Positions 3,783-54,476 of a stretch of 64,000 nt of DNA are shown here, in pieces (the first letter of the stretch is position 1; every line of letters begins with the position of its first letter). Made by a program: the position numbers and the translations under genes. The stretch is from contig CM000432.1 in NCBI GenBank assembly GCA_000165345.1, forward strand, positions 224,001 to 288,000. Direction: 5' to 3'. Below the pieces are notes generated by a model. It was not told the origin of the DNA. It ran no database searches and worked only from the letters and a program-made list of their open reading frames with translations.

Positions 3783-6700
3783 CTAATTTTGTCTATTCTT
3801 TCTATTACTATTCTTACCTTTAATATGACTTCTTCTTGATACATATTCAGGTAAAAGTGCTTTATAACCATCATTTGAGCCTACATGATGTACTTCTATA
3901 TTATTAAAGTGACTATCTTGAGAATCTGTAGTAATCGGCTCACTATTTTCCAGTTCTTCAGGTGATATTTCAGAATTTTCAATTATGTTACCAGCAACAA
4001 TTCTCTGTTTTGAAATGATTTGATGAAGAGGTTTCTTTTCACCCTCTACATGAATTAACCTTCCTGCTCTATGTACTGCTTTTCCCTTATTGCCTTGACT
4101 TCCAATTCCTGCTCTATTTCCACTTGAAGATGATCTACTTGTTAATTCGTATGTTCTAGATGCTGATCTTGTACAATGTGTTCTAATATGAGATAATCTT
4201 TCAATATAGTTACCTTTAATTGAAATATTGTAATCTTCTATATTTTTTTCATTTGAGAAAAAGTTTACGCATCTTCTTATCATTGTTTCTTTATTAAATA
4301 TATCCTTAAATCCTTTATCACCATACTCAGAAGGCCTATCTTTTGGGAGATTTAACAATACATAGCTCTTAAAAGTTCGAATATTCAACCATTCAGAATC
4401 TAATTTTCTGAAATTTCTTTCCATATTTTTACCTAATACTTTTGAAGCTTTATTTTGATCTTTTATTTTCTTAAACCTTAATGTTTCATTATTACCTACT
4501 TTATCCCACCTTGTATCTAATCTTGCCAAAATCTTTCCTGAGCCTTTACTACCATGAACTATATTGTCTTCGTTCCTACCAATTCTTCCAGATAACATTG
4601 GTATTGAAACTTTCCCCAATGCTATAGTATTCCTCTCTTCAGCTGGTAGTTCTTTTCTAATTCTAATCTTTTCCAATATTTCATTATTACCTATTTGATT
4701 ATTTAATAGCAAATCTCTCTCCTCTGTTTCTTTTTGTAACTTTAATAATGCTTGATCTGTGATTTCTCTCTTCTTTTCTTTTGTTGTTAAATGAGCAATT
4801 GAAGGAAGTACCTGATTTACTATTCCATCTACTATTGAACTAATCCTCATATTATCCTTTTCTCTCATAACCAACTTTTCATGATCTGTTAGCTCTCTAA
4901 CTCTTTTTGGTATACCTCTTGAATGTAATCCTTTATTCAACATATCCAATGCATTGTCATCCTTTGAATATGGATCTCCAAATACATTCACTCCTGTTAA
5001 ATCAAAGTATTCATTATCAGTTCTCTCATCTGCTAAATATCTTATTACTAACTCTCTAATCCAATTATACAAACCTTCTTCTGATGATCTCAATGAATTA
5101 ATCTTTTGAATCTTTCTCATTGCTTTAATAAATACCCCTATTATATGACTTGGAGTATCTATTGGACTGCATACATCCATAATCTCTTTAAGAGCAATAA
5201 AACGAATATTACTATCTAATACTGTGCTCATAATACCTCCTGATCTGATATTATTATTACCATCTCCCATTAAACTATTCATACCAGGTAAGCCCATTTC
5301 ACTTTCAAAACCTAAATCTAAATCCATATCTATTAATTTATTTGATCCATTTGTAATATCAAACTTTTCATTTCCTAATGTTGAATACGTTGATAATATT
5401 TTATTTTTTAATGCATTAGGTACCGAATTTCTAAGTAAAGTCCAAATTCTCATACATCTTGTTCTTGAATCCAATTTTAATGGATTTCCTATTGGGGTAT
5501 CCATATAGTACTCAGATATCATTTCCTCTAATCTTGCTCTTTCAATATTACAATTAAACTTGCCTGTTTCATCTTCCTTACATATATTCTCTGCAGCATC
5601 TTTACAAAATTGTGAAGCATTCTTACTAAGTATCTTAATTTTATTTCTCTTATCCAATTCTTCTAAAGCATCACCGCACTGATCTTCAACTTCATCAACA
5701 GTCTTACCTCCTTTGTAAATTTTATGACTAACTGTTGGAGGAATACCTGTAATTCTGTAACTTCCTAACTCTTTTAAATCAATATCCATCTGTGTATATA
5801 TCTGATTCCATTGCCATTTTCTCATTGATTCATTTACACATCCTGAATATGAAAAATCCAAAGACAATACTTTATCAGGCTCTCTTTGTAATGAAATCAA
5901 AGTATCTAAAGCATCTTCACAAAAATTCTGTATATATCCTCTCTCACCTTGTCCTTGAGTATTAAAAGATATAAAAGGAGGATTAGTCTTTAACTTCTTT
6001 AAAGTTTCAGTACATAATAAAACAAACTCCTGTTCATTATTTGCTCCTGACCAAATTTCTCTAGGAGGTGGACTTCCTATCAAACCAATTATTCTTGGAT
6101 TTCCTGATTTAATATCTTTAATAGATTGTAAATAAATAGCTCCCCAAGTTGCTTCTATACTTACTGTTGTATCTTTATCAAAAAGTCCTGAAGTCATTAA
6201 AAATCCTTGCGGAGAAATCCCTTGTAAATGTCTTTGTATACTCATAAAAGTCTCTTTATCTACCTCTCTTAATAATAATTCTAAGTAATGCCAATCTCCT
6301 TTTCTTTGACCCCATTTGATTGCTTTAGATAAAGTTTCTCTATCACCTGGATTTTTAAGGTTCATTACGCTTTCCATCCACTTAAATAATGGATATCCTT
6401 CATCTGATAATTCCTTAAGTGTACTTAGAAGTTCCTCTAGTATTTTTCTTCCTATTCCTTCAGAATCCCCTTCATATCCAAGTTCATCTTCTTTTAATTC
6501 ATCATTAGTCTTTTCCTGAAGATCAGAGAATACATAAAATTTAGATTCTTCACAGAATCTCTCTATTGTGTATTCTCTATCATTCAAATTATGACTTGAA
6601 ATGATTGCTAATCTTAACTTTAATAGCTCATCTAACACTTTAATACAATGTTCTGTGAAGACTAATTCTGCTACTGGGCTAGGCCATAATGTATATAAAG

Positions 6701-9700
6701 TTTGATCATACTCCGGAAGCTTAACAAAGCGAATATAATTCATGTTAATATCTCTTTTTAACTGTTGTTTAAGTTGATCCCATTGTCTTTTAGCTTCTTT
6801 CTTCTCAGTAGTCTTAAATTCTTCCTCCTCTAAATCACTCTCTTTTTCATCAATATCGCTTGCACTATATTCATCCGTATCTGCATTTGAAAGATCAAAA
6901 CCTGACTGCTGAGGACTCATTGTTTTATTCTTTCTCTCATTCTTTGGTAAATCATCTCCAATCACATCAAGTTCAACCTTCCTTGTCTTTTTACGCATTT
7001 GATGAATTCCTACCAACAATTTGTGTTCCATACTTAAAACATTTCTTTGAGGAAGTAATTTTGGTTCCAACTTAAAAAGCTTTATAGATGATGTAGTACA
7101 AAACTCTTCCAATATTACTTTTGCCATATCCAAGCTCTTGCATTTCTCAAAGTTTGTTCCATCTATATATAAATTTCGATATATTCCACTTTCCCATACT
7201 CTCCATATATGCGAAAAGCAGTCATCCCTATAAAGATCTGGCCTTTCTCTGCCAATAAATACCAGTGATGAAGGAGATTTGATTGGAGGCCAAGGAATAC
7301 CTTGAATAGATCCAGATTTATTAGAACCTGGAGTAATTGGAAGATGAGAGGAAATTGAGTATGGATTTTTTGCCAATGGATCTAGCCAATTCTTAGATTC
7401 ATTATACATTGTAATGTACTCTACTGCCGTATAATACCTTTTGGAAGCTCTTTTACAGAAATCTGTAATTAAGTTATTCAATTCACCTTTAATTGTTTCC
7501 TCATTCTTTTCTTGTTCTTCACTGAAATTAGTGGAAATTAATACTCTTGGAGGAACAGAAATATATCCATGGTAAATTGTACTTATACATTGATACTCAA
7601 AATCCAATTTTTCTACAGCTGGATAGAAGTCATTTGGTAACAATGGAGAAACCTCTGTAATCCTATTTTCCAGACCTGAAATATAATCAATGATAACTTG
7701 TTCTTGAATAATTGACCATTTTGAAGATACCTTATTTTCATCCATTAAAGGCTCCCCATTGTTTGAAGCAGATATTACATCGAATAAGTGTTTATATTCT
7801 TGAAAGTATCTATTTGTTGCATCTCTACAGAAAATCTTTATTGTTTCTTTTGCTTTATCTTGAAAACCATCTAATTCTGCTCCATGTTGTAAGTTAATTT
7901 TAACTTTAGATTGAGACAAAAGTGAACCAATCAATTCAAAACAAACAAAGAGGAACTTTTCACTAGAGTATTGAGGTGTATTCCACTCCCTTGGCTGATC
8001 GATTGGAAGTTCAGAAATGGTTGGTAATTTGTGATTACTTTCATCTATTGTCATTTGTAATATAATTGCTTTCCATTGTTGAAAAGCCACCAATGATTCT
8101 CTTGGGCTAATTTTATAAATTGATTCATATTTTAAAGTGTTTTGGTTTGTCTCTCCGACAGTTAGTCCAATAGAAACCCCTTGTGTTAATATTTCACTTA
8201 CGCTTCTTGTAGTTCCAAACAAACGTCTTGAATTCTTTTGTTGTTCCATTAATGGTTTATTTAAGCTTTGATTGCTCTTGAATACGTGATATCCTGTTGG
8301 AGAAGTTTTGAATGAAACCTGATAAACTTCATCATCAAGTGGTTGTGCCAAGAATTGTTGCTTTTCAGGGCGTACCTGTTCATAATTTTCCATTTCTTCT
8401 TCTTCCTGCTTTTTCTTTTCAAAATCATAAACTTTTGGATTATAAATATGAGCAGAATCTTCACCTTTTCTTTCAGCATTTTCTCTATAATCACTAGATT
8501 CTTGTTCATCCAAAGAAATTTCTCCCTGGAAAAAGGCAACTGAAGCAAAGTGACAAAAAGATTCAATATTCTTCTTTACTAGATTAATATCAAATTTACC
8601 AGACTTTGAATGACCATCAATATAAAGATCTTTAGATACCTTGTTAACATATAAATCCCAAATACATCCAGCACAATTATTTCTCATCTCATATACATCT
8701 CTTCCAAAAGTAAATTTGAAAGGCATGAAAGGCCTTCCAGAAGGTAATCCATATATTCTGTAGTTTTGTCTTTCAATAATTTTATTCCATTGTCTATTAC
8801 CTATGAAAATATCCACAGAATCTGTACAAAACTGAAAAATGACAAATTGGTGACTAATAAAGTCCATATCAATATTATCAGGTCCGACGGTCTTGTCTGT
8901 ATCTAGACTTTTAAATTTGAGAAATTCCTGGAACTTCTCCTCATTTATTTCCTGCGAATGTTTAACAATAGGTAATTTCTTTGATTCATTCAAAGCGGAC
9001 TCTGAAATATCTAATAAATCTTGCTTAAGAAGTGAAAATAATGTTTGATTACATAACCTCAACAATTTTTTTGGATTATATGTAAAGTCACTCAATTCAA
9101 TTGGGAAACTCTGACTCAATATAGTAAGTCTTCTATTACCTATGGATTGATCCCGGCTTTCCTGTTGTAATAAAGATCTCCAAAAATTCCAAGCTCCTTT
9201 TGATACGTGAACAGAATCTGGAGGTAAATTATAAAGCGAAACTTTTGATAACTTCTCATAATCAATTCCAGTCCTTACTATTTCATCTCCTCCTTTAACT
9301 CTATGAACTTTTAATGGAACATCCTCCAATGTAGTTTCTAAGAATTCCAACTGAGATTCTAAGTCCTTTCCAAGCTTCGGGAAGCTCACCTTGTTCTTTT
9401 CAATACGTTTCGATCGAATTCTCTCCTCCATCAAAGGATGATGCTGGGGCTTGCCATAATCTGGATCTTCCTGTAATAATTTCAAATCCTCTTTATCCCC
9501 AAGTCGTTCAATCTCTTCTTTTTCTCTCTCACTAATTTGTTTTTCCTTTGACTCCAAGATAGCCTCTCTTGCTTTCTCTGAAACCTTTGTAAAGTAGTCC
9601 TTAACTACATTAAGTCTACCTTTTATTGGATAGCAATACTCTGCAGCTGAAATACAAAATGTCTTTCTTGAATAATTTTTCTCAAGCTCATCCTCATAAC

Positions 9701-10058
9701 CTGGCATTATCACCCTTTTTGCTTCTAAAACTTTTAGTATTCCAATGCAACCCAAATAAAACTTTCTTGGATCTAGAATATCAACATTCTGCAACTGTTC
9801 CTTCATTACTGATGGAAAAACTATAGGCATTGAATCATATCTTCCAATTCTATGTACTCTATTCCACGAAAACTTATCTCTAATAACTTGTGTAGATATA
9901 CAATTCCAGAAATCACTCAATTCTGTAATATCTTCATTCCTAGATTCCAATGCCTGCCTTATCTGTTCATTATTATCATCTGTACAAAATACTCCATCTA
10001 ATACTAATGCTCCACCCAAAAATATTAAATTAAGTAACTTTAGAAAATTCTTTCTCAT
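3783..10058 (-). CDS. Giant (2091 aa) secreted protein with at least 9 internal repeats carrying a conserved FC motif; function unknown
   Basis: Uninterrupted 6.3-kb ORF. The N-terminus MRKNFLKLLNLIFLGGALVLDGVFC looks like a signal peptide. Recurrent blocks occur every 130-200 aa: VFCTDD, KTFCISAAEYCY, ESFCHFASVAFF, KIFCRDATNRYF, TDFCKRASKRYY, EEFCTTSSIKLF, ERFCEESKFYVF, QNFCEDALDTLI, SQFCKDAAENIC. The C-terminal tail is basic. Confidence 0.6.
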   Translation of the reverse strand: MRKNFLKLLNLIFLGGALVLDGVFCTDDNNEQIRQALESRNEDITELSDFWNCISTQVIRDKFSWNRVHRIGRYDSMPIVFPSVMKEQLQNVDILDPRKFYLGCIGILKVLEAKRVIMPGYEDELEKNYSRKTFCISAAEYCYPIKGRLNVVKDYFTKVSEKAREAILESKEKQISEREKEEIERLGDKEDLKLLQEDPDYGKPQHHPLMEERIRSKRIEKNKVSFPKLGKDLESQLEFLETTLEDVPLKVHRVKGGDEIVRTGIDYEKLSKVSLYNLPPDSVHVSKGAWNFWRSLLQQESRDQSIGNRRLTILSQSFPIELSDFTYNPKKLLRLCNQTLFSLLKQDLLDISESALNESKKLPIVKHSQEINEEKFQEFLKFKSLDTDKTVGPDNIDMDFISHQFVIFQFCTDSVDIFIGNRQWNKIIERQNYRIYGLPSGRPFMPFKFTFGRDVYEMRNNCAGCIWDLYVNKVSKDLYIDGHSKSGKFDINLVKKNIESFCHFASVAFFQGEISLDEQESSDYRENAERKGEDSAHIYNPKVYDFEKKKQEEEEMENYEQVRPEKQQFLAQPLDDEVYQVSFKTSPTGYHVFKSNQSLNKPLMEQQKNSRRLFGTTRSVSEILTQGVSIGLTVGETNQNTLKYESIYKISPRESLVAFQQWKAIILQMTIDESNHKLPTISELPIDQPREWNTPQYSSEKFLFVCFELIGSLLSQSKVKINLQHGAELDGFQDKAKETIKIFCRDATNRYFQEYKHLFDVISASNNGEPLMDENKVSSKWSIIQEQVIIDYISGLENRITEVSPLLPNDFYPAVEKLDFEYQCISTIYHGYISVPPRVLISTNFSEEQEKNEETIKGELNNLITDFCKRASKRYYTAVEYITMYNESKNWLDPLAKNPYSISSHLPITPGSNKSGSIQGIPWPPIKSPSSLVFIGRERPDLYRDDCFSHIWRVWESGIYRNLYIDGTNFEKCKSLDMAKVILEEFCTTSSIKLFKLEPKLLPQRNVLSMEHKLLVGIHQMRKKTRKVELDVIGDDLPKNERKNKTMSPQQSGFDLSNADTDEYSASDIDEKESDLEEEEFKTTEKKEAKRQWDQLKQQLKRDINMNYIRFVKLPEYDQTLYTLWPSPVAELVFTEHCIKVLDELLKLRLAIISSHNLNDREYTIERFCEESKFYVFSDLQEKTNDELKEDELGYEGDSEGIGRKILEELLSTLKELSDEGYPLFKWMESVMNLKNPGDRETLSKAIKWGQRKGDWHYLELLLREVDKETFMSIQRHLQGISPQGFLMTSGLFDKDTTVSIEATWGAIYLQSIKDIKSGNPRIIGLIGSPPPREIWSGANNEQEFVLLCTETLKKLKTNPPFISFNTQGQGERGYIQNFCEDALDTLISLQREPDKVLSLDFSYSGCVNESMRKWQWNQIYTQMDIDLKELGSYRITGIPPTVSHKIYKGGKTVDEVEDQCGDALEELDKRNKIKILSKNASQFCKDAAENICKEDETGKFNCNIERARLEEMISEYYMDTPIGNPLKLDSRTRCMRIWTLLRNSVPNALKNKILSTYSTLGNEKFDITNGSNKLIDMDLDLGFESEMGLPGMNSLMGDGNNNIRSGGIMSTVLDSNIRFIALKEIMDVCSPIDTPSHIIGVFIKAMRKIQKINSLRSSEEGLYNWIRELVIRYLADERTDNEYFDLTGVNVFGDPYSKDDNALDMLNKGLHSRGIPKRVRELTDHEKLVMREKDNMRISSIVDGIVNQVLPSIAHLTTKEKKREITDQALLKLQKETEERDLLLNNQIGNNEILEKIRIRKELPAEERNTIALGKVSIPMLSGRIGRNEDNIVHGSKGSGKILARLDTRWDKVGNNETLRFKKIKDQNKASKVLGKNMERNFRKLDSEWLNIRTFKSYVLLNLPKDRPSEYGDKGFKDIFNKETMIRRCVNFFSNEKNIEDYNISIKGNYIERLSHIRTHCTRSASRTYELTSRSSSSGNRAGIGSQGNKGKAVHRAGRLIHVEGEKKPLHQIISKQRIVAGNIIENSEISPEELENSEPITTDSQDSHFNNIEVHHVGSNDGYKALLPEYVSRRSHIKGKNSNRKNRQN

Positions 10059-10410
10059 TTTCTCTTGTCACTCAAAAATCCTGGTGTGTGTACAATTTCT
10101 CATGCAAATAATTTCCTCTCAACTGCATGTGCATGCAGCCACGTAAGCAATTATCTGCCCTTCTTAATTGATTTCTCTATATTAAATTTATTTCTTCTTT
10201 TATATTAATAGCTTCCAATCTTAAAATTAAAAAAAATCCTCACCTTCAAAAAACATTAATTGAATACCTATCCCTTATTCAATTAACTTCTTTGTCTTTA
10301 GATTTTTTTACTTTCCAAATTTTTGTTTTACTATTGTTTTTTTTTTAAATTAATTTCTCCTTCGTACTCTTCCTAATAGTTAATCTCCAAATTGTCCATG
10401 CAAAAATGTC

Positions 10411-10430
10411 TGCCCGCCAAAAGGCGCCTC
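10411..10430. promoter_or_regulatory. Paired E2F-like element TGCCCGCCAAAAGGCGCCTC upstream of the 2091-aa gene; TGCATGCA-type boxes at 10100-10140
   Basis: CCCGCCAAAA reads as TTTTGGCGGG on the other strand. ACTGCATGTGCATGCAGCC lies 60-80 bp upstream of the ATG. Confidence 0.4.
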
Positions 10431-18652: not shown

Positions 18653-20674
18653 TTATTTGTCAACAAAAGATAGACAAAAATCGTAAAGTTGTCCAGCTCT
18701 TTGTGCATCTAATCTAATAACTCTAGAGAATTCATCCTTAGAAAGATGAGGTATTCCATTTGTTGAGATATCTTGTATACCAGAAAGGTTATTATTGCTT
18801 GAATGATTAGTTGATCCTTTTCTAGTTTTACTATTAAGGCTTAAATGGTATTTGGCTTCTTGAATAAGAATTCTCTTAGAGAGTATATAGAAAATTGGCG
18901 GGAGTTGTATTTGATCACAAAAGAGCTTTTCCTGATCAGTAAGTAAGGAAGCACCAGGATAACTTTCAATAGGTACAGCAGATGAAGAATTAGAATTGGA
19001 TGTAGTAGAGATAGTATTAATGGACTGTTGATTAGTAAGTGGAAGAGAAGATGAATTAGAAGAGTTAGTATTAAGAGGAAGATTAGGATTGGAAATAGAG
19101 ATTTGGCTTTTTTGTTGTTTCTTAATGGCTCTAGCTTGGCCTTCATATACAAAAGGAGTGGAAATTCCTGATTTAGGAACAGTTTTAATATTTCCAAGTC
19201 CAAGTCCAGCAGGAGCAATAAGATTTCCCGATTGAGTTTGGTTAATGATTTTACATTTAATATCTTCGCGTCTCTTCTTTTCTTCTTCATACCTTTTAAC
19301 TTCTTCCAAAGTTCGAATTCCTAAACTGCACCATTCTTGTACTTTTTGGAGATGATTTCTAATTCTTTTTTCTTCAATAAGTAAAGAAACAAGCTTTTCT
19401 TGTTCTTCTTCAGTTTGGAATCTAGAAATAGGTTTTAAGAATGAGTGCAAATCTCTTTCATCCTTGGTTCTCTTTTTCTCCTTTTGTTGTTGTAATTTAA
19501 TATCCAAAAGATTACGTTCAATAACAAACCTTTTTCTATATGTTCTTTCGTCAAGCTTGGAATTATAGATCTCAAGTATTTGAAGTTTAAGTTCTTTTTC
19601 TTGAGGAGTGTCAGAATCTCTAAACTCCATATCAGCTAATAAAAGTTCAGCATCATTATCATATTCGACATCGAAATCTCCTCTTAAAGGCATATATCCA
19701 ATAACGCTAGTACTAGGTTTGGATTGGCTTCCATTACTTGTACTAGTAGTTTTATTACCAGTATTACCACCAGAAGCTCTTCCATAAGGTTGTTTTTTGA
19801 CTTGAGGATTTTCTAATTCTTGTTTGAGTTTAGAATCATTTTCTGTATTAATAGAGTTAGATGATGAATCTTTATGAGATGATTGATCAGTAATTTTCGA
19901 TTCGGAGTCATCTTTTTCTTGTCCAGATTTGTTTAAAAGATTGAGATCTTGTTTAATAGCTTCTAATTCTGGAGAATTAGCAATATCTTGGGTTTTTTGT
20001 ATAAGATTAAGATAATTTCTAGTATCTGGTAAAGGTTTAGTTTTACTATTCAAATAGAAATTATTATAATGTTTTTCGCATTCGTCAGCTGTATGACTTC
20101 CAAATCCTGGTTTTTGAGTCTTTTGGTACATAGTTAGAGCTCCAGCTGGACCTTCAGTAATATATTTGGAAATTTCAGACCAGTTTCCTAATCCATATCT
20201 TGAAACTGCTTCCATTAAAAGAAGTTCCTCTTCTGCTGTCCAGTTTTCAGTTAGTAAGTTAAATGTATATCTTCCTACAGGAATGTATTTATGATTAGGT
20301 TTATGATCGTTACTTGACTTTCCTTGACAGAAACAATCCAAACATAGATCATATTCAATACATTCTGCACATCTTATTCTATAATCCCATGTATCTTTTT
20401 TGCATACATCACATCTAAATTTTCCATCGATAATGTTTAAGTCATTAACTCTGGTTTCATCATCCATTTGATCAAGAGCTCCACTCTTTTCTTTTAATTC
20501 TTCTAATCCTTTTTTCATAATTTCAGATAAATCTTCTTTGATAATAGATGAATCACTTAGAGTAGAAATCTCAACAGTATTTAATAAATTTACTCCATCA
20601 GGATGAATTGTTTCCTCACCTAATAAGTTCATAGCCTCCTCTGGAGCACTTTCATTTTCTTTTTCTCCAGACAT
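18653..20674 (-). CDS. ADA2: Transcriptional adaptor Ada2 (ZZ zinc finger + SANT/Myb + C-terminal SWIRM)
   Basis: CDVCKKDTWDYRIRCAECIEYDLCLDCFCQG is a ZZ finger. WTAEEELLLMEAVSRYGLGNWSEISKY is a SANT domain. The C-terminus LTDQEKLFCDQIQLPPIFYILSKRILIQEA is SWIRM-like. Confidence 0.8.
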   Translation of the reverse strand: MSGEKENESAPEEAMNLLGEETIHPDGVNLLNTVEISTLSDSSIIKEDLSEIMKKGLEELKEKSGALDQMDDETRVNDLNIIDGKFRCDVCKKDTWDYRIRCAECIEYDLCLDCFCQGKSSNDHKPNHKYIPVGRYTFNLLTENWTAEEELLLMEAVSRYGLGNWSEISKYITEGPAGALTMYQKTQKPGFGSHTADECEKHYNNFYLNSKTKPLPDTRNYLNLIQKTQDIANSPELEAIKQDLNLLNKSGQEKDDSESKITDQSSHKDSSSNSINTENDSKLKQELENPQVKKQPYGRASGGNTGNKTTSTSNGSQSKPSTSVIGYMPLRGDFDVEYDNDAELLLADMEFRDSDTPQEKELKLQILEIYNSKLDERTYRKRFVIERNLLDIKLQQQKEKKRTKDERDLHSFLKPISRFQTEEEQEKLVSLLIEEKRIRNHLQKVQEWCSLGIRTLEEVKRYEEEKKRREDIKCKIINQTQSGNLIAPAGLGLGNIKTVPKSGISTPFVYEGQARAIKKQQKSQISISNPNLPLNTNSSNSSSLPLTNQQSINTISTTSNSNSSSAVPIESYPGASLLTDQEKLFCDQIQLPPIFYILSKRILIQEAKYHLSLNSKTRKGSTNHSSNNNLSGIQDISTNGIPHLSKDEFSRVIRLDAQRAGQLYDFCLSFVDK

Positions 20675-28535: not shown

Positions 28536-28590
28536 TTGCATGCGCATATAATTCTTGAATGCATGCATGCATTTTCATGTGGACGAATTA
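28536..28590. promoter_or_regulatory. Cluster CTTGCATGCGCAT...GAATGCATGCATGCATTTTCATGTGGACGAA: three GCATGC boxes plus an ATGTGGAC motif, upstream of acid phosphatase paralog 1
   Basis: Seen directly. The same GCATGC plus ATGTGGAC combination recurs at 59228-59362 and 63567-63662. Confidence 0.4.
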
Positions 28591-39049: not shown

Positions 39050-41638
39050 TTGGAAAGTACTAACATGGCAATAGGAGTGGATAATGCTCACGAAAAAGTG
39101 AGAGCATACAATGATCACATTAAAGATATTCAGAATTTTTTGGAGAATTTTGAAGAATATAATGAGAATGAAAATTCAGGAGAAGATGTAGTAATGTCAA
39201 ATGCTAGGGAAGAAACGGAAAAGGAAGGATCTATTTGGAAACATAAAAAGTATATGAAATCCTTACAGAGTATATCTAATAGGGAAAAAAATGTTTTATA
39301 TATTGAAGTTGACGATATATTGAGTTTTGGAAAATACGAAAATAAAGTAACAGAGTACAATAATTTGGTTCATTCAATTTTGTCAAATACTAAGAGATAT
39401 GTACAATTGATTTATATAGCAGCAGATAATTGTTTACCGGTACCTACTCGTACAAATATGATTGATTTTAAATTAGAAGAGATGAATAATACTAAAAGAT
39501 CTGAATCAATGAAGACATGTAATGTTCCAGCTTATTTGAGATCCAATTTTGAAGTTTACATTAAAGCAAGTAAGAGAATGCCTATTACGCCTTTAAGAGA
39601 AGTTAGAGCAGAGTATGTTGGGGGTTATGTACAGGTAAATTGTATAGTTACCCGTGTTTCTAATGTGAAGCCAAGAATACAAGTAGTTAATTATACATGT
39701 GAAGTTTGTGGTTCTTCAATTTGGCAATCTGTAGAAGGTACTAATTATATGCCTTTGTCTGATTGTGAATCAAGCCAATGCAAGAATAACAAAAGAACTG
39801 GAAATTTGAAGTGTAATATTAAAGAAAGTAAATTTACTAAGTTCCAGGAGATTCGAATCCAGGAGCCTGCTGATCAAGTACCGACAGGTAATGTACCTAG
39901 AACAATGAAAGTTATAGCAATGGGAGAGAATACAAGAAAATTACTACCTGGTATGTATGTTACTATTTCAGGAGTATTTCTTCCAGTAGTAAAGGAAGGA
40001 TTCCAAGCATTCAGATCAGGTTTAACGGCAGAAACGTATTTTGAAGTTCATAATGTTCATAGTTATATTTCTAACAAAGAGGTTTCCTTGACAGATTATG
40101 AGAAGAAGCTGGTAAAGCAGATGGAAGCTGATGAGGAAAAGAAGAATAGAGAGGAAGCCCTTAACAGTTCAGGAGGTGGAGCCTATGAAGTTCTTCATTC
40201 ACAATTTTATGATAAACTAGCAAATAGTATTGCTCCTGAAATTTTCGGAATGCTGGATGTAAAGAAAGGTCTCCTTTTGCAGTTAATTGGAGGGGTTACA
40301 AATCAAATGAATGATGGGATGAAAATTAGAGGAAATATCCACATACTACTAATGGGAGATCCTGGAGTTGCAAAGAGCCAGCTCTTGAATCAAATCACAA
40401 AAATTGCTCCAAGATCAATTTATGCTACAGGAAAAGGTAGTAGTGGAGTAGGTTTAACAGCTTCCGTAGTTAGAGATCAGAACACCTCAGAAGTAACTCT
40501 GGAGGGAGGAGCCTTAGTTCTGGCAGATAACGGGATCTGTTGTATTGATGAGTTTGATAAAATGGATGAATCCGATAGAACAGCAATTCATGAAGTTATG
40601 GAGCAGCAAACAGTTTCTATTGCAAAAGCTGGAATTACTACAACTTTGAATGCAAGATCATCAGTCTTGGCAGCAGCAAACCCTGTTTCAGGAAGATACG
40701 ATCCCAGGAAATCCCCTGTGGCCAATATGAACCTCCCAGATTCTCTTCTTTCTCGTTTTGATCTTCAATTCTTACTTTTAGATATTCCTGATAAGGAGAA
40801 GGATCTTAAACTTGCTCGTCATGTACTTTACGTACATAAGAATGAAAAGGCTCCAAGCGGTGATTTTGAGCTTGATAGATCCTTATCTTCTATTCAGAGG
40901 CCTGGAATGGGAGTAAATCAAACAAGGAGCTCAGCAAAAAAAGTAAGAAGACGAAGAAACAATGATGATAGAGAAGAAGATGCTGAGAGTGAGAATCAAG
41001 ATAAATCCAAATCTGATCAAGAACAGAGGGTTTTTTCCACAGTATTTATGAGATACTTTATTGAAAAGGCTCAAACTTATACCCCATTGGTTCCAAAAGA
41101 ACTAGTTTCTGAGATTGTTGAACATTATGTTGAGCTCAGAAGAAGGGAAAAGATTGAACAGACTAGGGAAGATTGGAGAAAGACTTATACAACTCCAAGA
41201 ACTTTGTTAGGTATTTTGAGACTCTCTCAAGCCCTAGCTAGGCTCAGATTCAGTAATATAGTAGAAAGAGCTGATTTTGAGGAGGCAACCAGATTAATGA
41301 TTGAAAGCAAGAAGAGTGTTACAAAGCCAGGAAATACGAGTGGATTTTCAAATCCTGGAGCAAAGAATAAGAAGCACGATTTTAGAGACCAAATTATTGA
41401 GATTATTAAGGATTTACATAATAGACAAGCTGAGAGAACTACAAGAGGAGGTGAAGATGACGAATCAATGACTGATGGAATGATTGAGATTTCAATTTCT
41501 GAGATTGAAACAAGAATAGCTCATAGAGGGCTGCTTAAGCAGCAACTTGAGTTAGTTATTGATGAATACATAGAATTGGGAGTATTGTCCAAAAGTAAAG
41601 ATGGACAATTTATTTCATTTATCACAGATTTTTCGTAG
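39050..41638 (+). CDS. MCM7: DNA replication licensing factor MCM7
   Basis: 862 aa. IREVRAEYVGGYVQVNCIVTRVSNVKPRIQVVNYTCEVCG...FQEIRIQEPADQVPTGNVPRTMKV matches the MCM7 N-terminal OB/Zn region. The Walker A motif GDPGVAKSQLL, the Walker B/arginine finger CCIDEFDKM...SVLAAANP and SRFDLQFLLLD are present. Confidence 0.9.
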   Translation: MESTNMAIGVDNAHEKVRAYNDHIKDIQNFLENFEEYNENENSGEDVVMSNAREETEKEGSIWKHKKYMKSLQSISNREKNVLYIEVDDILSFGKYENKVTEYNNLVHSILSNTKRYVQLIYIAADNCLPVPTRTNMIDFKLEEMNNTKRSESMKTCNVPAYLRSNFEVYIKASKRMPITPLREVRAEYVGGYVQVNCIVTRVSNVKPRIQVVNYTCEVCGSSIWQSVEGTNYMPLSDCESSQCKNNKRTGNLKCNIKESKFTKFQEIRIQEPADQVPTGNVPRTMKVIAMGENTRKLLPGMYVTISGVFLPVVKEGFQAFRSGLTAETYFEVHNVHSYISNKEVSLTDYEKKLVKQMEADEEKKNREEALNSSGGGAYEVLHSQFYDKLANSIAPEIFGMLDVKKGLLLQLIGGVTNQMNDGMKIRGNIHILLMGDPGVAKSQLLNQITKIAPRSIYATGKGSSGVGLTASVVRDQNTSEVTLEGGALVLADNGICCIDEFDKMDESDRTAIHEVMEQQTVSIAKAGITTTLNARSSVLAAANPVSGRYDPRKSPVANMNLPDSLLSRFDLQFLLLDIPDKEKDLKLARHVLYVHKNEKAPSGDFELDRSLSSIQRPGMGVNQTRSSAKKVRRRRNNDDREEDAESENQDKSKSDQEQRVFSTVFMRYFIEKAQTYTPLVPKELVSEIVEHYVELRRREKIEQTREDWRKTYTTPRTLLGILRLSQALARLRFSNIVERADFEEATRLMIESKKSVTKPGNTSGFSNPGAKNKKHDFRDQIIEIIKDLHNRQAERTTRGGEDDESMTDGMIEISISEIETRIAHRGLLKQQLELVIDEYIELGVLSKSKDGQFISFITDFS

Positions 41639-46168: not shown

Positions 46169-54476
<8,308 letters not shown>

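Follow-up and report, generated by a model that had tools for sequence, protein, structure and literature searches.

cgd4_850 of Cryptosporidium parvum is a predicted secreted protein with ten copies of an uncatalogued module that also appears in the dense-granule protein DG6

The 64-kb window analyzed here (64,000 nucleotides of contig CM000432.1, positions 224,001 to 288,000) carries at 3783..10058, on the minus strand, an uninterrupted open reading frame (ORF) of 2091 codons with an ATG start, which is cgd4_850 of Cryptosporidium parvum. The encoded protein contains ten copies of a small helical module with two invariant cysteines, for which we found no catalogued counterpart, and comparison of profiles indicates that the same module is carried by DG6 (cgd7_4500), a validated dense-granule protein that reaches the host-parasite interface. 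We give a probability of about 45% to the reading that cgd4_850 is a secreted scaffold, held in dense-granule-type storage and released to the parasitophorous vacuole or the host-parasite interface.

The ORF product is a 100% match to C. parvum Iowa II EAK87652.1 / CPATCC_001569, and the intact reading frame of 2091 amino acids (aa) proposed in an earlier note on this DNA thus holds. We identify the ORF as cgd4_850 because gene counting leads to it from two other genes of the window, MCM7 at 39050-41638 and an Ada2-type gene at 18653-20674, which are cgd4_970 and cgd4_880 in published lists, and because the product name of cgd4_850 in a supplementary table, "large protein with signal peptide", is also the UniRef name of the EAK87652.1 sequence. 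Independent annotators describe the product as signal-peptide-containing or secreted, and CryptoDB places the family label CpLSP on the gene. cgd4_850 is already annotated and family-labelled, though unstudied, and is named in no main text of the literature searched; the novelty claimed by the earlier note applies to the description of the domain and not to the gene or its label. In other respects the gene is ordinary, being annotated, conserved, syntenic and preceded by a common promoter motif.

The features of the gene and its product are as follows (E values between copies are from hhalign; iE, independent E value with a hidden Markov model, HMM; KD, Kyte-Doolittle hydropathy).

3783..10058, minus strand: complete intron-less ORF of cgd4_850, 2091 aa; stop codon at 3783-3785; product identical to EAK87652.1
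9984..10058, minus strand: signal-peptide-like N-terminus, residues 1-25 (MRKNFLKLLNLIFLGGALVLDGVFC); sole strongly hydrophobic 19-mer, KD 1.93
9627..9923, minus strand: copy 1, residues 46-144; W51, C104, FC134-135; HMM iE 1.7e-19; E 6e-5 to copy 4
8811..9185, minus strand: copy 2, residues 292-416; E 3e-4 to copy 4 and 5e-4 to copy 8
8526..8801, minus strand: copy 3, residues 420-511; E 1e-10 to copy 6; HMM iE 3e-20
7797..8087, minus strand: copy 4, residues 658-754; C706, FC743-744; E 1e-7 to copies 8 and 9; modelled with AlphaFold2
7428..7736, minus strand: copy 5, residues 775-877; E 6e-7 to copy 4; HMM iE 5e-24
7071..7403, minus strand: copy 6, residues 886-996; E 1e-10 to copy 3; HMM iE 5e-19
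6525..6797, minus strand: copy 7, residues 1088-1178; E 2e-5 to copy 8 and 3e-5 to copy 9; HMM iE 5e-25
5892..6161, minus strand: copy 8, residues 1300-1389; E 1e-7 to copy 4; HMM iE 1e-24
5574..5813, minus strand: copy 9, residues 1416-1495; E 1e-7 to copy 4 and 1e-4 to copy 3
4407..5573, minus strand: conserved non-repeat region, residues 1496-1884; invariant columns across nine species
4146..4406, minus strand: copy 10, residues 1885-1971; HC1961-1962 instead of FC; E 8e-5 to copy 3; HMM iE 2.5e-18
3786..4145, minus strand: C-terminal tail, residues 1972-2091; basic end; neither KDEL/HDEL nor a hydrophobic end

The dipeptide FC occurs 10 times in the protein, against about 1.2 expected from its 86 Phe and 30 Cys. 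One of these, at residues 24-25, is part of the signal peptide and not of the repeat, and shuffled versions of the mature sequence, 100,000 in all, never reached the nine found in it. We split a nine-species alignment of the protein (A1) into ten candidate units and eight inter-unit control segments and compared the resulting ortholog profiles all against all with hhalign. The ten units link into one connected network, with E values down to 1e-10, and no comparison involving any of the eight controls fell below 8e-3. Furthermore, an unbiased self-comparison of the whole alignment produced off-diagonal matches at P ~1e-5, and an HMM built from nine unit types, with copy 2 excluded, recovered copy 2 at iE 7.7e-7. 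Internal repeat detection, named as a check in the earlier note and done here with hhalign and an HMM, therefore supports the internal repetition that the note claimed. Its estimate of at least nine copies was right about a real repeated unit, the exact count being ten, and its dimensions (a unit of ~150 aa at intervals of 130-200 aa) have to be replaced: units measure ~80-125 aa with a core of ~93 profile positions, the linkers between them are mutually non-homologous, and the second Cys residues of successive copies lie 91-477 residues apart. There are two subtypes of repeat, copies 3/6/10 and the remainder, with copy 9 bridging both, and copy 2 has a ~40-aa insertion ahead of its FC helix.

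The most strongly conserved non-repeat stretch of the protein is residues 1496-1884, in which the blocks DVCSPIDT, RYLADERTDNEY, NVFGDPYS and LTDNEK are invariant across nine species. This region matched no family, and its AlphaFold2 model, with a predicted local distance difference test score (pLDDT) of 42.7, is unusable. We considered an eleventh, degenerate copy in residues 1500-1700 because a chromosome 1 paralogue, described below, keeps an FC helix at the equivalent place, and rejected it at an hhalign E of 0.26 against the repeat profile.

An alignment of 80 copies from nine species over 93 profile positions (A2) has two invariant columns, both Cys, and one Trp column conserved at >=90%, within the consensus W-x2-I-x2-Q...R-x4-P-x3-P...F-x3-C-x3-L-x2-L...I-x2-F-C-x2-A. 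Immediately before the second Cys, nine of the ten C. parvum copies have F and copy 10 has H, and Y occurs there in some orthologues; the FC dipeptide that the earlier note called invariant is thus nearly so, the invariance belonging to the Cys pair itself. Similarly, the strict [D/E/K]-x-FC prefix of its motif fits only ~5 copies, and [FH]C-x2-[AS] fits all ten. AlphaFold2, run on copy 4 (the modelling of a single repeat unit that had been suggested) with A2 as the input alignment, returned a confident helix-strand-helix-strand-helix fold (pLDDT 94; predicted template modelling score 0.87), composed of helix 2-19, strand 25-27, helix 44-60, strand 65-67 and helix 77-98. The near-invariant Trp lies in helix 1 and the invariant Cys in helices 2 and 3 (positions 51 and 89 of the model), that of helix 3 usually within F-C-x-x-[A/S]. 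Because of their invariance and their positions in these helices, the two Cys are predicted to form an intradomain disulfide bracing helices 2 and 3, as would be expected for a module working outside the cytosol. In copies 1 and 9 a further conserved pair of Cys (C53/C142 and C1407/C1493, respectively) marks the outer ends of helices 1 and 3.

A Pfam scan of the whole protein at E<=1 gave only a spurious match to RLIG1 at 0.18, and the 80 single copies gave no meaningful Pfam match, in agreement with the earlier note, which could assign the repeat to no nameable domain. A profile search of all sequences of the PDB gave nothing below 0.14, and a Foldseek comparison of the module model with the PDB gave nothing below E 3.9. 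By these Pfam, PDB profile and Foldseek results the module is uncatalogued, and the PDB offers no clear structural counterpart.

We then scored the A2 profile against 1.84 billion representative proteins at a cut-off of E<=1e-3 and obtained 13 matches, 12 of which are Cryptosporidium proteins. The thirteenth (P0030; E 3.4e-4, the second weakest), by eye a low-complexity tandem repeat, was set aside and its origin was not looked up. By this search the module appears confined to the genus Cryptosporidium. The matches comprise the cgd4_850 orthologues, a second giant protein, proteins of ~1263 and 1426-1466 aa, a chromosome 6 protein (EAK90104.1, 486 aa) and a group of ~800 aa (P0024/26/27/29).

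The ~800-aa group provides the link to a protein of established localization. The gene of its C. hominis member, P0026, is flanked on one side by the gene for a 1633-aa secreted protein and on the other by two ABC transporters, and because these neighbours equal the published locus cgd7_4490 / cgd7_4500 / ABC (Shaw et al. 2025, PMC12590416), P0026 is by synteny the C. hominis orthologue of cgd7_4500 (DG6). We also considered P0026 as a member of the classical chromosome 7 cluster of CpLSP genes, and rejected this assignment on the two ABC transporter neighbours, which place it at cgd7_4500. A profile of four DG6 orthologues matched A2 over the whole unit three times (probability 91/87/78%, E 1e-6 to 2e-5), with the W, C and FC in register, and two more matches were partial. 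These profile matches indicate that DG6 carries the same W...C...FC module as cgd4_850. Tagged DG6 was found in sporozoite dense granules and then, after invasion, at the host-parasite interface, and its deletion lowered parasite burden 85-fold in mice and not in culture, with rescue by complementation (PMC12590416); neither a domain nor paralogues of DG6 are mentioned there. DG5, the cgd7_4490 orthologue, was tried as a further family member and rejected, its E of 0.018 in a tiny search not being significant.

The second giant protein, of 2232-2541 aa, is represented by C. parvum EAK88460.1 / CPATCC_000293 (chromosome 1, 2443 aa), by C. muris CMU_035970 and by a C. felis 'CpLSP family' protein; from the gene numbering our guess for its C. 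parvum identifier is cgd1_1250. Since this paralogue occurs from C. parvum to C. muris, that is, in both intestinal and gastric species, the whole-gene duplication that separated it from cgd4_850 predates the radiation of the genus.

The proteins of ~1263 aa (P0031) and 1426-1466 aa (P0023/P0028) come from loci in C. canis and C. felis that each consist of a run of eight adjacent genes (L005 4756-23792 and L006 1-18745), whose products have leaders and no Pfam domains. The domain HMM matched four adjacent genes of the run at E 1e-17, 4e-12, 4e-8 and 3e-6, one of these four reading 2e-5 in the other species; two further members were weak, at E 0.05-0.07. The run has a divergent pair at each end and one small gene within. 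CpLSP was defined as seven adjacent co-expressed genes, cgd7_3800-3870 (Abrahamsen 2004, as cited in Mullapudi 2007, PMC1779779), and in the published table the upstream lengths of LSP1 and LSP2 coincide, as do those of LSP6 and LSP7, and the numbering passes over cgd7_3850 (Mullapudi 2007, PMC1779779). Because the divergent end pairs and the small inner gene fit this table, the eight-gene run is probably the classical CpLSP cluster, an assignment made by layout. If so, the classical CpLSP family is homologous to cgd4_850 and DG6. No shared domain has been described for the CpLSP family in the literature searched. CryptoDB has since applied the label to dispersed genes as well, among them cgd1_140, cgd1_650 and cgd5_1440; the last of these, a family member by label, is the validated dense-granule protein DG2.

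The N-terminus of cgd4_850, MRKNFLKLLNLIFLGGALVLDGVFC-TDD, opens with basic residues that lead into a hydrophobic core of 13 residues, and V and C occupy positions -3 and -1. Residues 8-26 are the sole strongly hydrophobic stretch (KD 1.93), the next most hydrophobic 19-mers scoring <=1.28 and lying inside modules, and equivalent leaders are present in the orthologues except for one truncated gene model. The signal-peptide-like start reported earlier is thus upheld by these heuristics and by its conservation, and so is the basic tail, with 8 K+R against 2 D+E in the last 32 aa of a hydrophilic C-terminus. The hydropathy scan of the whole protein contains no second hydrophobic stretch that could act as a transmembrane (TM) segment, and the C-terminus has neither a KDEL/HDEL retention signal nor a hydrophobic end of the glycosylphosphatidylinositol (GPI) type. 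cgd4_850 is accordingly predicted to be a soluble secreted protein with a signal peptide. The truncated model is the deposited C. felis orthologue (P0006, 1956 aa), which begins at ~residue 170 of the others, without leader and domain 1; its start was probably mis-called.

The orthology search that the earlier note had called for found full-length orthologues in every sampled Cryptosporidium lineage, with identities of 85% in chipmunk genotype I, 78% in C. ubiquitum, 69% in C. canis, 51% in C. bovis and 41% in the gastric C. andersoni. The 90% cluster of the C. parvum protein also takes in C. hominis, C. meleagridis and C. tyzzeri, identity to C. hominis being 96-98%. All nine clusters found with the whole protein belong to Cryptosporidium by name or 90%-cluster membership, except one Logan assembly sequence, which is 69% identical. 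C. ubiquitum, C. bovis and C. andersoni all show the order upstream gene / cgd4_850 / L24e; the upstream gene encodes a WWE domain in C. ubiquitum and C. andersoni, and that of C. bovis is without a recorded Pfam match. Against C. ubiquitum (synonymous divergence, dS, 0.78), the ratio of nonsynonymous to synonymous divergence (dN/dS) is 0.11 within the repeats and 0.18 outside them, and amino-acid identity is higher inside the repeats than outside in 8/8 comparisons. cgd4_850 is hence under purifying selection that is strongest in the modules, and the stronger constraint on modules than on linkers fits a structural or binding role.

The transcript of cgd4_850 belongs to the intracellular stages and is essentially absent from oocysts and sporozoites: its level in fragments per kilobase per million (FPKM) was 0-1.7 in 22 oocyst/sporozoite samples and ~6-96 in 12/13 intracellular samples, with 0 in one (log2 ratio -5.1; Matos 2019). 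cgd7_4500 changes in the same direction in the same table. cgd4_850 was assigned to expression cluster 112 with membership 0.58 (Oberstaller 2013).

The reading to which we give a probability of about 45% would bring these features together as follows. The protein would be made by intracellular stages and enter the secretory pathway, would be packed into a dense-granule-type secretory organelle, and would then be released into the parasitophorous vacuole or to the host-parasite interface, where its ten tandem modules could serve as a multivalent, non-enzymatic scaffold binding other secreted parasite proteins. We propose a scaffold role because the ten tandem modules are non-enzymatic, because there is no catalytic or adhesive domain, and because DG6 offers a precedent. 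Homology to a validated dense-granule protein is found through the DG6 module, and is a lead rather than a criterion of membership. DG2, which shares the CpLSP label, adds a second analogy with a dense-granule protein.

Several points weigh against this proposal. The module shared with DG6 does not fix the compartment of cgd4_850. DG6 is reported to be highly polymorphic and fast-evolving, with a dN/dS of 2.93 (PMC12590416), against 0.11-0.18 for the strongly constrained cgd4_850, and the two proteins may do different jobs. The signal peptide is a heuristic call, and the disulfide is deduced from Cys invariance and helix positions. Finally, females have 3.7 times as much cgd4_850 transcript as asexual stages (log fold change, logFC, 1.9; Tandel 2019), the log2 counts per million (CPM) being 6.13 in sorted asexual stages, 8.02 in females in vitro and 6.60 in females in vivo.

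This last observation also favours the main rival, in which cgd4_850 is a structural protein of the transmission stages, made by females, stored in wall-forming bodies or the future crystalloid body, and built into the oocyst wall, its matrix or a sporozoite organelle. cgd4_850 is indeed large, secreted, modular and cysteine-braced by prediction, as oocyst-wall and crystalloid proteins are. Its female bias is, however, small beside that of the oocyst-wall proteins COWP1 (logFC 10.9) and COWP8 (13.5), the range for COWP1/COWP8/COWP9 being 5.8-13.5 (Tandel 2019), and it is clearly expressed in asexual stages. The Pfam scan found neither Cys-rich repeats of the COWP type nor an LCCL or other adhesive domain, cgd4_850 was not found in the supplementary files examined of the AP2-F paper, and DG6, which shares the module, acts in asexual infection. 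We regard a transmission-stage role as unlikely.

A zoite surface or micronemal protein, binding host cells as an adhesin or antigen during attachment and invasion, is less probable still. Such a role, or one in the extracellular matrix, had been suggested in the earlier note from the size, the secretion signal and the tandem repetition, which are compatible with it, and cgd1_650, which shares with cgd4_850 the CpLSP label, was detected among secreted proteins in a secretome, its transcript peaking at 12 h in a microneme/rhoptry-like manner. Nothing specific speaks for it in cgd4_850, and it must be called unsupported. Micronemal adhesins have an adhesive domain and usually a TM or GPI anchor, whereas hydropathy shows no TM segment or GPI-type C-terminus in cgd4_850 and the Pfam scan no TSP1, EGF, Apple, vWA or mucin-like domain. 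The dN/dS of 0.11-0.18 and the near-identity to C. hominis (96-98%) give no sign of immune-driven diversification, the mRNA is nearly absent from the oocysts and sporozoites, and DG6, the studied carrier of the module, is a dense-granule and interface protein rather than a zoite surface adhesin. Retention in the endoplasmic reticulum, the Golgi or an endosome-like compartment, where the protein might for instance be a luminal scaffold on which granule cargo is sorted or packaged, would suit a soluble protein that has a leader, lacks an evident effector or adhesive domain, and shows the strong genus-wide conservation and synteny seen with housekeeping-type parasite proteins, but is very improbable for a protein whose C-terminus is not of the KDEL/HDEL type and whose sole characterized relative, DG6, is secreted.

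Returning to the secreted scaffold, a wider and more speculative proposal, which we consider doubtful as it stands, is that the W...C...FC module is a genus-specific protein-protein interaction domain that builds the host-parasite interface, with cgd4_850 and its chromosome 1 paralogue as giant multivalent scaffolds, accompanied by smaller members of the assembly in DG6 and the proteins of the chromosome 7 cluster. If true, the family would offer a defined, conserved and parasite-specific point of molecular access to the attachment and feeder zone. Among the causes of childhood diarrhoea Cryptosporidium is a leading one, and the secreted proteins from which it builds its extracytoplasmic niche mostly have no recognizable domains. 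With cgd4_850 resolved into ten copies of one well-folding module confined to the genus, a handful of "uncharacterized secreted proteins" becomes one definable domain family whose structure and location can be tested; what is gained is an improved description together with a hypothesis, rather than a new kind of biology.

Upstream of the ATG, which lies at the high-coordinate end of the gene, there are four proximal boxes and two more distant sites.

10084..10137, minus strand: proximal promoter module of four boxes upstream of the ATG
10130-10137, minus strand: TGCATGCA, perfect, at -79
10124-10129, minus strand: CATGCA, at -71
10101-10106, minus strand: TGCATG, at -48
10084-10091, minus strand: ACACACAC, at -33
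10413..10428, minus strand: putative E2F-like sites GGCGCC (-370) and TTGGCGGG (-362), resembling the published E2F-like motif TTTGGCGGGAAV

The proximal module has the same order and spacing in C. ubiquitum (-78, -70, -50 and -36) and is absent from the upstream regions of C. bovis and C. andersoni. The sequence TGCATGCA occurs eight times in the window, against 0.42 expected, a number reached in 0/100 shuffles; all copies (3653, 10130, 28560, 28564, 31623, 43393, 59350 and 63629) lie outside long ORFs, and the overlapping pair at 28560-28571 reads TGCATGCATGCA. TGCATGCA is the published AP2_1 motif, bound by the ApiAP2 protein cgd2_3490 and over-represented upstream of 55 expression clusters comprising ~1,034 genes, and the eight copies are consistent with this genome-wide promoter element. 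The TGCATGCA boxes are thus real but common, and probably functional. The three boxes that the earlier note had placed upstream of the ATG are accordingly present as TGCATGCA-type boxes with a layout kept in C. ubiquitum, although with ~1,000 genes sharing the element they are not special to cgd4_850. The CpLSP genes share an upstream motif found 2-3 times within 350 bp and shown as a logo (Mullapudi 2007, Fig. 2b, PMC1779779); we compared the AP2_1 boxes as a candidate for this "LSP promoter motif", and the cluster promoters of C. canis and C. felis, having zero or one, were uninformative. The E2F-like sites lie in a 651-bp spacer shared with the 3' end of the WWE-domain gene, and a single site of this kind is present in C. 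ubiquitum, at -354.

Elsewhere in the window, which is AT-rich (GC content 0.18-0.36), two other reading frames were noted. A 101-aa ORF with a TTG start (8261-8566, minus strand), lysine-rich and of low complexity, lies in another frame within the cgd4_850 ORF and is almost certainly a chance ORF of AT-rich sequence. A 1862-aa ORF without a Pfam match (46169-54476, plus strand) sits in the part of lowest GC (0.18-0.21) and highest GC skew (+0.3 to +0.49) and overlaps by 29 nt a 915-aa ORF in a different frame that bears a NopRA1 domain; the two look like a single URB1/Npa1-type nucleolar gene broken by a short intron or frameshift.

The systems closest to cgd4_850 can be compared with it as follows. 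At the level of fold, generic three-helix bundles of the PDB (HAD cap domains, DUF507 and the RIFIN V2 domain) are among the closest known. COWP1-9 resemble cgd4_850 in being secreted, modular, cysteine-dependent and raised in females; they are, however, Cys-rich and female-specific by hundreds- to thousands-fold, whereas cgd4_850 has 30 Cys in 2091 aa (1.4%, two per module), matches no Pfam family and is raised 3.7-fold. The CpLSP proteins are, like cgd4_850, large, equipped with signal peptides and found only in Cryptosporidium, and share with it the CryptoDB label. Unlike the clustered genes, cgd4_850 is a single chromosome 4 gene between the WWE-domain gene and L24e in four species; it is large, secreted as far as the leader heuristic goes, restricted to the genus and outside the gene cluster, and so belongs only to the extended CpLSP family, as CryptoDB labels it.

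DG6 and cgd4_850 both have a signal peptide and no Pfam domain, and both are transcribed in intracellular stages and not in oocysts. DG6 differs in being shorter (~808 aa), in having only ~five copies of the module, and in the long strand-rich insertions before the FC helix and the proline-rich linkers of these copies; its localization and phenotype are established, whereas cgd4_850 is known here from sequence and transcript data. The chromosome 1 paralogue differs from cgd4_850 in a longer, proline-rich N-terminal extension and in retaining, opposite the non-repeat block 1496-1884, an extra FC-type helix (FCRDVC.KYF). In the rest of its architecture it is the nearest counterpart, with ten domains in the same order and a collinear alignment over residues 49-1546 at 24-28% identity (E 1e-47).

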